Origin: a virus
Lineage: Duplodnaviria > Heunggongvirae > Uroviricota > Caudoviricetes
Length of the DNA: 9,540 nt
Reading direction: 5' to 3' (one strand)
IMG/VR virus record: IMGVR_UViG_2537562192_000011
The position numbers are program-made. Below, in pieces: positions 6,001 to 9,000 of the stretch; the stretch's first letter is position 1; the number at the start of each line of letters is the position of its first letter.

Positions 6001-9000
6001 GCACCGTCCCGCCACGCCCTTAATCATTACCGTGCCGCCGTACTGGTCGCGGTAAATATCACCGCGCGTAAATTTAGGGTGAGTGTTGCCACTGGCAGTT
6101 AAGCCAGAATATTTAAATTTCATTATTTTTATTCTCCGGTGTGCTGTTCGTTATATCTGTCGTGCAATTGGTCTATTTCTTGTAGTTCCATTATTACAGG
6201 CTCAAGAAGCGTTATTAATGCCGTGACAATTCTTGATTTTTGTTTGTCGCGTTCATTGTCGCCAAGTGTTTCAAGCCATATGCGCAATATTTCCATCATA
6301 TTTTCACTGTGAGAAAGTGCAAGAAATACGCGATCTGTTGTTTCGTGGTAAATATCACGCATATTAATCCCCGTCCGTCGCTTTTCTTAAAATAACCTCT
6401 GTCACGAAATCAGCATAGTTAGCGGCAATATCAAGAATATTTAGCCCTGTATCTCTGTGCTCATCAGTGCAAAGAAAGAAAAAAGCCACCCGCATAATTT
6501 CAGATATTGACGAAAGCGCATCAGCCGCATCATCAGAAACGCCGGAAAATTCTTGTTTCAGGGAATTAAAACGATCATCACGCATAACCCCCCCCATTTT
6601 CACAATCAGCAATCAGGATAGCTTTGGCCTCATTCAGCGCCATATCAGCACTAAGTTGCATAACCGCCAGCGAATGAGGAACGAAAGCCCCTGCATATTC
6701 TGTTTCACTGGTGGCGTGCTTATGCGCCCTGTCAGCAATAACAGAAATATCAATAAGCGCGTGCATCAGCGTAGTGAGCGCGGCGGCTGCTGCGTCCGGT
6801 GTGGTTTTATTGTGCATAGGTTTCTCCCTGGCGAATACGGGCTGCAAATACAGCAACACAACCGGACGGGCAACGGCTACGCGCTTCGCGTTCCGTCCAG
6901 GCGGTTACGTGGATGATTTGAGATTCTCCGGCACTCAGTGCCAGAAAACGCCACACAAAGGCCGTTTGTGTGTGTGCTAGTCGTGGGGTATGATTTACGG
7001 CAACCATAAATTTACCTCTCTATAGTGTTTGTGGTTAGACGCCCTGCATGTGTTCCAGCACTGTGGGGCGTTGTTTTTTGGTGCAAGTCACCTTGAAATC
7101 TAGGTTACTTTTAGGTGACTTGCACTTCAAGTCTTTTTTTATTTTTTTTTCTCCGTATACTGAACACCACCTAACAGTAAGGAGAACAGAGATGCCAACA
7201 GGTACAACCAACAACAAGTCACAACAAAAAACTGCTAGAGTACCTCTAGACGTTTTAAGCGAAATGAATTTGGTAAAAGAAGAAAACGAAACAGACGCAC
7301 AATTTATCGTTACTGCCATGCGCGGCGAAATCAAACGCCGCCAGCGTCGCAAGGCCAAAGAATCAGAATAATCACTATCAGCGCCGTGGTGTGAGGTACT
7401 CCGGCGCATTGCTTTACAGGAACACACAATGACCAACAAAGAATCAACCAATACACCATCGCAAAAAACGAACAGAGAGCACGAAAATATGGCGCTCGAG
7501 CATGAATCAGAAAGATTCGCACCATGCGCTTTTGTCCTTGATGAGTTTCTAAAAAAATATTCACGTTCTGAACGGATGAAAATGGCAGCACAATACGGCC
7601 CCAACAAGCAAGATAATTGCCCACCAGCCTGATCGCGGTTATCATGCCCGGGCTTATGATTGTTGACACATACGGCGCAGCGGGTTAATTGTTCAGAAAG
7701 GTGGCTCCATTTCGGGGCCGCTTTTTTTATGTTCATCATTTGCCCTATATATGTTAAGCGGTCGTTCCGCGCGCTTCTTGTTCGCGTTCTTTCATCCATG
7801 CGATTACGTCTTCCTCATACCATCCGCGACGGCGCAAACCGACACGAAAACCCTGCGGGAATTCTCCGGCGTTGATCATGCTTTGCAGCGTGCTGTCTGC
7901 CTTAATGTGGATAAGTTTTTTTACTTCCTGGCGAAAGATGACTTTTTTGATTGCTTCCATCGTGATTTACCTCATTAATCCGGTGTATTCCGGTGTATTC
8001 CGGTGAGAAATACGGTAAATCATCGGATGCAGGGAAAAACAGTACTCACCGTTTTTAAACGGTATACACCATTTTTTATATTGATGATTTGAAAGGGATT
8101 TATAAAAAAAGCGGCATTTCTGCCGCTTTCAGGATTGTTACCGCCATTTTTTTGGCCTGCCTCCGGTCTTCATGGATGCCGGACGTACAACCTTATCAAT
8201 ACTTACAGCCAGATTTCTGGAAGCCCCACGGGATACCAGGAAATCTACTACCTGTTTTTTTGATGGGGCCGTCGTTCTGTCCTCCGGATCGTAGGTTGAC
8301 CAAAATTCATGCTGAACCATCAGGGCCAGTTGCAGCCCGTCGCAATTGCATCTGAAATTTGTTTGCATCTTAACAGTTTCATTTTTCAAGGCCTCGTCGT
8401 TAAATGTGATGCAATTATACGACGGTTTTAAATGGTTTTCGTAGTTTTTACTGGTTTTCTGTACAGCTAAACGGCTCGGATACCCCTTTTACCACTGGCG
8501 AGGGTTACGCCCGTCGCCGCAGCCTCGACAAATTCGCCCCACCAGCGCATAAGCACGATGCGTTTTTCTATGTAGTTGCTCCGGTTGTATGCCCGTCTGA
8601 CTTCGTTGGTGTCGACGTGGGCAAGTGCGGCCTCTATTACGTCCGGCTCAAAGCCTTCTTCGTTCGCTGCTGTGCTGAATATGGCGCGTAATCCATGAGA
8701 CACCAGCACGCCAGCGAATCCCATGCGTCGTAATGCTGCGTTAGCGGTCTGGCTGTTCATCGGCTGCTGTGGGTCTTTCAGACTCGGGAAAACATAATCG
8801 CGGTGGTGGCTGATTGGTTTCATAGCCTCCAGCACTGCCATAGCCTGGTCACAAAGCGGGATAACGTGGTCGCGGCGCATCTTCATGCGTCCGGCGGGTA
8901 TGGTCCAGCGTTGCGCTTCCATGTCGATTTCTTCCCAGCGTGCCGACGATGCTTCAACGGGACGGGTTACGGTCAGTAACTGCCATTCAATCAGTAATCT

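Follow-up and report, generated by a model that had tools for sequence, protein, structure and literature searches.

A small gene between int and alpA of an Escherichia coli phage satellite putatively encodes the stand-alone form of an unannotated C-terminal domain

What is encoded by the small transcription unit that separates the integrase gene from alpA in an Escherichia coli phage satellite, and what might its product do there? We considered this question for IMG/VR virus record IMGVR_UViG_2537562192_000011, a stretch of Caudoviricetes DNA of 9,540 nucleotides (nt; the whole stretch is hereafter called the window), which is a phage satellite of E. coli of the phage-inducible chromosomal island (PICI) type, with a gene order like that of EcCICFT073. 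Expression of AlpA is the trigger of the E. coli PICI cycle, for which no repressor is known, and is enough to set off excision and runaway replication of EcCICFT073 (PMC6092414); the integration zone described in the literature consists of int and AlpA only (PMC6092414, PMC10111431). The silence of Gram-negative PICIs and the induction of alpA by helper phages have posed a question ever since these elements were first described. The 76-amino acid (aa) gene at 8138-8368, for which we use the name X, is a third conserved gene exactly between int and alpA, and a concrete, cheap-to-test candidate for a part in that question. An initial annotation of the window had recognized a small unit here with its own -10 hexamer and terminator, both of which proved to be conserved, and had proposed that the unit could hold accessory cargo such as a small toxin or anti-defence peptide, or else a small RNA (sRNA). 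We consider it about evenly balanced whether X is a DNA-tethered accessory or regulatory factor of the int-alpA switch.

Variation among alleles points to the 76-aa open reading frame (ORF) as the gene of this unit. The frame runs on the minus strand from an ATG at 8368-8366 to a TAA at 8140-8138, is annotated by RefSeq/PGAP as hypothetical protein WP_012817901.1, and has an in-frame TTG at 8389 that would yield an 83-aa form. Among 32 unique alleles, the variable sites in codons 10-74 were distributed 21/13/53 by codon position, and no in-frame stop occurred in any of the 32 alleles, versus 125 and 113 stops in the other two frames. The ratio of nonsynonymous to synonymous substitution rates (dN/dS) was 0.03-0.2, with synonymous sites saturated between two subfamilies at a dN of only ~0.2. 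These patterns show that X is a real protein gene under strong purifying selection, and because that selection acts on the 76-aa frame, the product is probably a protein rather than the sRNA of the initial annotation; no Rfam 15 covariance model matched at E ≤ 1 within 8104-8466. Plus-strand ORFs across the unit (88, 42, 40 and 40 aa) were rejected as candidate genes, as the selection signature belongs to the minus-strand frame.

The X protein (8.7 kDa, pI 9.9, with 13 basic and 7 acidic residues) appears to be the stand-alone form of an unannotated C-terminal domain. A HMMER scan of 1.84 billion cluster representatives recovered 659 proteins at E ≤ 1e-3; among the 172 proteins collected to that point, the domain lay ≤27 residues from the C-terminus in 169, the three exceptions being ankyrin-type repeat proteins. 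The proteins that carry the domain are typically modular and 170-270 aa long, but Salmonella, Xenorhabdus, and a Burkholderiaceae genome have short stand-alone forms as well. The close homologs of X are all "hypothetical proteins" of E. coli, Shigella, or E. albertii. Members share the signature ..FWSTYDPxDxxTAPxxxxVxxWLxxxGxSxxxAxAxxxILRPxxxxxGxRxx, in which W23, D27, T33, P35, L44, A54, and R62 are near-invariant. An AlphaFold (AF2) model of X built on a 61-sequence alignment contained three helices (residues 10-23, 37-46, and 51-61) at a mean predicted local distance difference test score (pLDDT) of 84.5; an earlier AF2 model had a mean pLDDT of 80, and neither model had a beta hairpin. In the model, the basic tail KTGGRPKKWR is non-helical and of lower confidence (GGRPKKWR corresponds to residues 69-76, and the last blocks have mean pLDDT values of 53-79). 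Tails of this kind are a family trait: a G-R-P, G-P-R-K, or G-R-R motif was present in 136 of 163 unique family tails, and the last 15 residues of family members carry a mean net charge of +3.1, with the remaining domain acidic (median pI 5.5).

No known family accounts for this domain. Searches with X and its long forms returned nothing above noise in Pfam, NCBIfam, PHROGs, PADLOC, or PDB sequences; X itself had no Pfam match even at E ≤ 1 and none among the 5027 models of PADLOC-DB. When nine long or mid-length forms were compared with PADLOC-DB at E ≤ 0.1, two marginal matches appeared, both from a single protein (P0022; Cmr5 at E 0.013 and PglX at E 0.034). Foldseek found nothing below E 0.4 in BFVD and PDB, and fold searches gave generic helical bundles only. 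Designed ankyrin repeats, which surfaced in a PDB sequence search with a narrow profile, were rejected as a repeat-summing artefact on "evvkLLisKGA"; a broad profile matched nothing. We found no name, structure, or literature for the domain. Regardless of the role of X, these 659 cluster representatives, with no Pfam, PHROG, or PDB relative, define a new domain family, which could be a marker for P4-integrase-type satellites and islands.

The genomic neighborhood of the domain suggests that it is a recurrent part of an integration/regulation module across Proteobacteria, encoded just after a P4-type integrase and in most cases ahead of alpA and a primase or replication gene. Outside E. coli, seven loci had enough upstream sequence for a comparison of synteny, and all seven (L005, L006, L007, L098, L101, L182, L183) had a same-strand P4-type integrase upstream (Arm-DNA-bind_3, Phage_int_M, and Phage_integrase). 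The X gene came next after int in a gammaproteobacterial metagenome-assembled genome (L005; X of 225 aa, then a 70-aa ORF and a GPA replication initiator), in Sedimenticola (L006; X of 240 aa, with DUF927 further on), in an IMG/VR contig (L098; X of 232 aa, then AlpA [PF05930, E 2e-17], AntA and, further on, DUF927), and in two metagenomic loci (L101, where int fragments precede an X of 150 aa, and L183, where X is followed by SNase and AAA_25). In the Burkholderiaceae locus (L007), a toxin/antitoxin pair lies between int and an X of 73 aa, which is followed by Toprim/DUF3987, and in a further metagenomic locus (L182), other genes intervene between int and X, between X and AntA, and between AntA and a small terminase. 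Loci L099/L100 and L102 start at X or slightly ahead of it, and AlpA and a Toprim primase come after X; AlpA follows X in these loci as in L098. A replication gene of some type (GPA, DUF927, Toprim-DUF3987/DUF3631, or AAA_25) occurs further downstream in most of these loci. One 4.7-kb metagenome contig (L185) reads X, a 73-aa ORF, HTH_39, other genes, a replication protein, DUF5681, and a P4-type integrase; if this contig is circular, int would again lie directly upstream of X, and the contig could be a minimal excised element.

The distribution of the domain among mobile elements points in the same direction. In tblastn searches, neither X nor a typical family member had a match among 50,697 phage records, and the typical member had one dubious match among 72,556 plasmid records, on a 1.4-Mb record. 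X appears to travel with integrative elements and a P4-type integrase, whatever the replication module, and since it is restricted to integrative elements and linked to int, a component of the integration module fits better than mobile cargo.

Signals for a separate transcript flank the gene on both sides. The perfect -10 hexamer that the initial annotation had placed at 8414-8419 (TATAAT, minus strand) is present and belongs to the presumed X promoter. We aligned 59 unique copies of the region from int stop to alpA start, drawn from 98 loci, with identities given relative to the window type: the hexamer was kept in 58 of the 59, across subfamilies. The best -35 at 17-nt spacing is ACGAAA, with three matches of six. 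Because TATAAT occurs twice in the window versus 4.4 times expected by chance, the hexamer alone is not significant, and the promoter and terminator signals rise above chance because they are conserved among homologous regions. A consensus scanner listed neither of the two. The strong terminator of the initial annotation also held up: on the minus strand, a stem (GAAAGCGGCA), a GAAA loop, and the opposite stem (UGCCGCUUUU) form a hairpin at 8130-8107 that is followed by a U-run (U7; T-run to 8104), with a 10-bp stem, a folding energy of -15.4 kcal/mol, and a z-score of -5.8, and none of 200 shuffled sequences folded as well. The second subfamily has a hairpin and T-run at the identical position with another stem sequence (AUAGCGGCC / GGUCGCUAU; -14.3 kcal/mol), and a stem that changes but still pairs at a fixed position points to a maintained terminator. 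The terminator at 8104-8130 would end the X unit, and probably also ends read-through from int. It leaves 143 nt between its end and alpA; X itself ends 177 nt from alpA.

Far from being non-conserved filler, an outcome that would have spoken against a functional unit, the region is conserved across subfamilies, with mean identities of 89% from the int stop to the -10 (minimum 75%) and 82% in X codons 10-76 (minimum 67%). The first of these segments, at 8420-8466 on the minus strand, is a conserved non-coding element that holds four A-rich repeats phased at 10 bp (GAAAACCAGT AAAAACTACG AAAACCATTT AAAACCGTCG). Directly after the int stop, a CTG-N10-CAG palindrome-like motif (CTGTACAGAAAACCAG; 8451-8466, minus strand) resembles a LexA box and is kept in all subfamilies. 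As a LexA box for X it was rejected: it has one mismatch to CTGT-N8-ACAG, lies ~29 nt upstream of the -10, and is not above chance in its window count.

Between the conserved promoter and the conserved coding core lies a hypervariable segment (8342-8413, minus strand) that comprises the leader and the start of X up to about codon 9. It falls into at least seven sequence classes, with a mean identity of 67% for the leader plus the first nine codons and values down to 35%, and the arrangement of start codon and Shine-Dalgarno (SD) element depends on the class. One locus (L029) is a recombinant with its junction within the EFWSTYDP codons of X. This hypervariability may stem from a recombination hotspot or from diversifying selection. 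In the window, the sole SD-like element of the leader is a GAGG at 8392-8395 on the minus strand, which is spaced not for X but for a 20-aa ORF in another frame (ATG at 8382-8380 to TGA at 8322-8320, minus strand), encoding MKLLRCKQISDAIATGCNWP and overlapping X codons 1-17. The ATG of this short ORF lies 14 nt before the X ATG, and its UGA overlaps X Met17 (UGAUG). The initial annotation had described both frames correctly for this allele, the 76-aa ORF as weakly initiated and the 20-aa ORF as starting 9 nt after the GAGG: anti-SD duplex energies are +0.4 kcal/mol for the X start at ATG 8368 versus -5.9 kcal/mol for ATG 8382. Compared over seven leader classes, the short ORF was present in classes 1, 2, and 4, which are mutually homologous, absent in class 3, and started by TTG in class 7; class 3 has a GAGG 8 nt before the X ATG (-7.2 kcal/mol), and in classes 6 and 7, X starts at a GTG behind AAGGAG (-7.7 and -8.0 kcal/mol). 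The short ORF may influence X translation in the window's leader class. Met17 as the true X start, reached by UGAUG coupling, was rejected: P0009 and P0010 have Leu at this position, and helix 1, upstream of Met17, is conserved.

How X relates to the usual content of this position can be seen in IMG/VR satellites whose integrases are 67-78% identical to that of the window. The slot between int and alpA is usually 0.9-1.4 kb long in these elements and holds one ORF of 197-355 aa without a Pfam domain. Two such ORFs (L159 and L162) end in a recognizable X domain (E 7e-9), and four others (L151, L153, L154, L164) share their N-terminal ~130 residues (LNIPxHIRRLRIV..AALxMAG...IWPWAxxELS) but have a different C-terminus. 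A further four (L157, L158, L163, L166) begin with an LEYxSxxRAAxLLxCE motif that also heads some long X-family proteins, and in L156 and L161 the slot is empty (324-369 nt). N-termini that are shared and C-termini that are swapped suggest that the slot holds a modular, domain-swapping protein family, of which the window holds the C-terminal module alone. The comparison of slots called for by the initial annotation was therefore divided in its outcome: X does recur downstream of P4-type integrases, but some slots are empty or hold a protein with another C-terminus, and X appears recurrent but not indispensable. Slot proteins resemble the modular "dynamic zone" proteins of PICIs in that domains are exchanged between elements, here by swapping C-terminal modules on a shared N-terminal domain; unlike those proteins, which are located after alpA, X lies before alpA, in the integration zone, and its family has no Bro-N or other Pfam domain. 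In three clear recombinant islands (L109, L130, L165), the X type stays with the AlpA type and not with the int type. The gene between int and alpA of another E. coli PICI, EcCIMP1_002, is ~10% of the size of UvrB, was misannotated as "excinuclease ABC subunit B" via a suppressed record, and did not complement a uvrB mutant (PMC11773190); this gene may be an X homolog.

If X is a DNA-tethered factor of the int-alpA switch, it would be transcribed from its own conserved promoter (perfect -10, weak -35) up to the intrinsic terminator, and possibly also by read-through from int, because no hairpin separates int and X. It would be produced while the island is quiescent, and its basic, AT-hook-like tail (GGRPKK) would anchor it to the AT-rich DNA of the int-alpA control region. 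Phased A-tracts and TTTAAAAA motifs abound in the control DNA that flanks X. Through the invariant FWSTYDP..TAP surface of its neutral-to-acidic helical body, X would contact a partner (Int, AlpA, or a helper or host factor) and thereby modulate the excision/induction switch; the terminator would keep constitutive int/X transcription off alpA. An AT-hook has a G-R-P core flanked by basic residues, as in HMGA. The tail KTGGRPKKWR likewise appears to place a G-R-P core with flanking Lys/Arg in a low-confidence non-helical segment, and most family tails have a comparable motif, but there is only one copy, placed at the extreme C-terminal end of a folded helical domain, and many relatives have G-P-R-K or G-R-R.

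Several observations weigh against this reading. We infer DNA binding by X from the tail motif alone; the helical body is neutral in X and acidic family-wide, and its conserved residues lie mostly in the hydrophobic core or in loops, with no typical recognition helix. Related PICIs with an empty slot (L156, L161) or with a slot protein of another C-terminus lack X, so that at least some elements can do without it. In the window allele, the X start lacks an SD, and X may be poorly expressed as a result. Outside E. coli, synteny was compared at a small sample of seven loci, and allele linkage cannot separate an Int from an AlpA partner, as the correlations of X with the two were 0.86 and 0.85, respectively.

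Other explanations of the unit can be set against the same evidence. We regard it as very improbable that the functional product is the 20-aa peptide or a non-coding RNA and not the 76-aa protein: the only good SD in the window's leader class does serve the short ORF, and in several classes its stop overlaps X Met17 as UGAUG or UAAUG, but the codon-position signature and low dN/dS lie in the 76-aa frame, and classes 3, 6, and 7 have a strong SD before the X start. The short peptide is also class-specific (MKLLRCKQ.., MSRIICGQ.., MKILLCKIPP.., MRNRDLLKW..), is conserved solely where the overlapping X frame imposes it, and fails in class 3 and, for want of an ATG, in class 7; we conclude that the 20-aa ORF is probably not a functional peptide, as the initial annotation had proposed. 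An RNA product finds no Rfam match in 8100-8470, and the leader has no stable fold (z = +0.96). That X is a functionless, decaying remnant of a long slot gene seems equally far-fetched. Such a remnant could be expected to look like a C-terminal module left alone behind a scrambled leader, which is the state of the window by comparison with the 197-355-aa slot proteins; yet the ORF is intact in all 32 unique alleles, dN is only ~0.2 between subfamilies with saturated synonymous sites, stand-alone short forms are also known from Salmonella, Xenorhabdus, and the Burkholderiaceae genome, and both promoter and terminator have been kept.

P4-like satellites are known for a cargo hotspot close to int, and X may be seen as an accessory effector that acts on host or phages (interference, anti-defence, or toxin) and occupies a permissive slot beside int. 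Related PICIs do differ in slot content (a short X, a long modular protein, or nothing), the leader and N-terminus are hypervariable, the slot of L007 holds a toxin-antitoxin pair, and the slot gene of EcCIMP1 was handled as accessory by its authors (PMC11773190). We nevertheless think cargo of this kind unlikely, contrary to the initial annotation: X appears to be a soluble basic protein with no PADLOC, PHROG, Pfam, or NCBIfam match, and no hydrophobic membrane-spanning or toxin-like stretch was found in X, nor a membrane-spanning one in the 20-aa peptide. Such cargo usually also travels in phages and plasmids, yet phage records lack the domain and plasmid records all but lack it, and the int-X order recurs with unrelated replication modules in distant Proteobacteria, in several cases with alpA directly after X. 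A sharper form of the reading of X as a factor of the int-alpA switch would make X, together with its long relatives, the so far missing factor for quiescence of Gram-negative PICIs: a constitutive, chromatin-tethered repressor or sensor that holds alpA off or gates the integrase until a helper-phage protein engages it, like Stl of the Staphylococcus aureus pathogenicity islands (SaPIs). In the long forms, the exchanged N-terminal modules would then be the phage-sensing parts that set which helper is sensed. X shares with SaPI Stl and with Rpr of Gram-positive PICIs a position between int and the cycle-starting genes (int - X - alpA in the window and its relatives), and its family shares with them the design of one conserved module combined with highly variable ones. 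The constitutive-looking promoter, the terminator that separates X from alpA, the conserved repeats and palindromes upstream of alpA, and the co-segregation of X type with AlpA type in the three recombinants would all suit such a factor. Against these stand the failure of X and its long forms to match any helix-turn-helix (HTH) family of Pfam or NCBIfam (HTH_3/XRE included), a domain body that is not basic, the absence from the window form of any sensor module beyond ~9 variable residues, and the presence of alpA without X in L156 and L161. X is, moreover, co-directional with the operon and terminator-separated from alpA, whereas stl is divergent, and the conserved module of the X family is C-terminal. 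On balance, we find a quiescence factor rather unlikely.

The reading of X as an accessory or regulatory factor of the int-alpA switch also invites comparison with the recombination directionality factors (RDFs) of the AlpA/Vis/Hef/TorI type (PF05930, PF12728). These are small (~70 aa), basic, and encoded beside a P4-type tyrosine integrase in the same int-proximal module, as is X, but X has no sequence match to them, and its predicted three helices without a beta wing make a winged-helix fold improbable. Because a bona fide AlpA gene lies 177 nt downstream, X would be a third component and not the element's AlpA. X resembles a familiar kind of protein, the small accessory protein in the integration module of a mobile element, and is a member of no named family, since each family tested either failed on a defining feature or matched on position only. 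The idea that X is a diverged AlpA was rejected, as its sole "AlpA family" homolog (P0018) is an artefactual deletion fusion of X and AlpA. That 90-aa protein, from a public record labelled Cooperia oncophora, consists of X residues 1-41 followed by a C-terminal portion of AlpA; it arose from a deletion across the X-alpA interval and must be bacterial contamination of a nematode assembly.

The interval between the X terminator and alpA has features of its own. Immediately upstream of the alpA ribosome-binding site, at 7976-8005 on the minus strand, is a 10-bp tandem repeat (CACCGGAATA CACCGGAATA CACCGGATTA), present in three copies in the window versus two in all 17 representative relatives displayed, from both subfamilies; it is a candidate binding array, polymorphic in copy number, for AlpA or another regulator. 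Between this array and the terminator (8047-8075, minus strand), every subfamily conserves an inverted repeat (ACCGTTTAAAAACGGT; 8063-8048) and another ACGGT/ACCGT half-site. One of the ACGGT/ACCGT half-sites is broken in the window by a T at 8071, where relatives have a C. The scanner labelled the inverted repeat "terminator-like"; to us, it looks more like an operator.

The window corresponds to an island at tRNA-Pro beside yejM in E. coli 2012EL-2448, to which a 1001-base query (7700-8700) is 100% identical. Its minus-strand gene order is integrase, the 76-aa hypothetical protein, an AlpA-type regulator, an Icd-like gene, DUF4222, primase, SSB, and a ClpP-protease/capsid fusion, and the island of Nissle 1917 has the identical order. 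Among 5426 complete E. coli genomes, 301 contain the stretch from alpA to the int 3' end and 374 contain the small unit; the exact X protein occurs on at least 1000 contigs. Upstream of X, the P4-type tyrosine integrase gene (8467-9540, minus strand; Arm-DNA-bind_3, Phage_int_M, and Phage_integrase in Pfam, NF007246 in NCBIfam) is cut by the window end. Downstream, the gene for the AlpA-family regulator (7754-7960, minus strand) matches PF05930, below the cut-off, and PF12728, as well as PHROG 66/2790 ("excisionase and transcriptional regulator"), and its Nissle ortholog is annotated as AlpA family.

Further from X, the window island carries a gene for a fusion of a ClpP-like prohead protease and major capsid protein (540-2429, minus strand), and the syntenic islands of Nissle 1917, U90, and EC43 (L002, L003, L004) have a separate major capsid gene, a head decoration gene, and a small terminase gene instead: the late module has been swapped onto a conserved early backbone. 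Between alpA and the Icd-like gene (7000-7750), RefSeq places a pair of small genes on the plus strand, one for a YlcI/YnfO family protein and one for a hypothetical protein, against the general gene direction; a 254-aa minus-strand ORF there has no Pfam match and is probably spurious. The same segment contains a weak SymR-like Rfam match (7002-7075, plus strand; E 0.17, below the gathering score), and it may be an antisense or immunity region.

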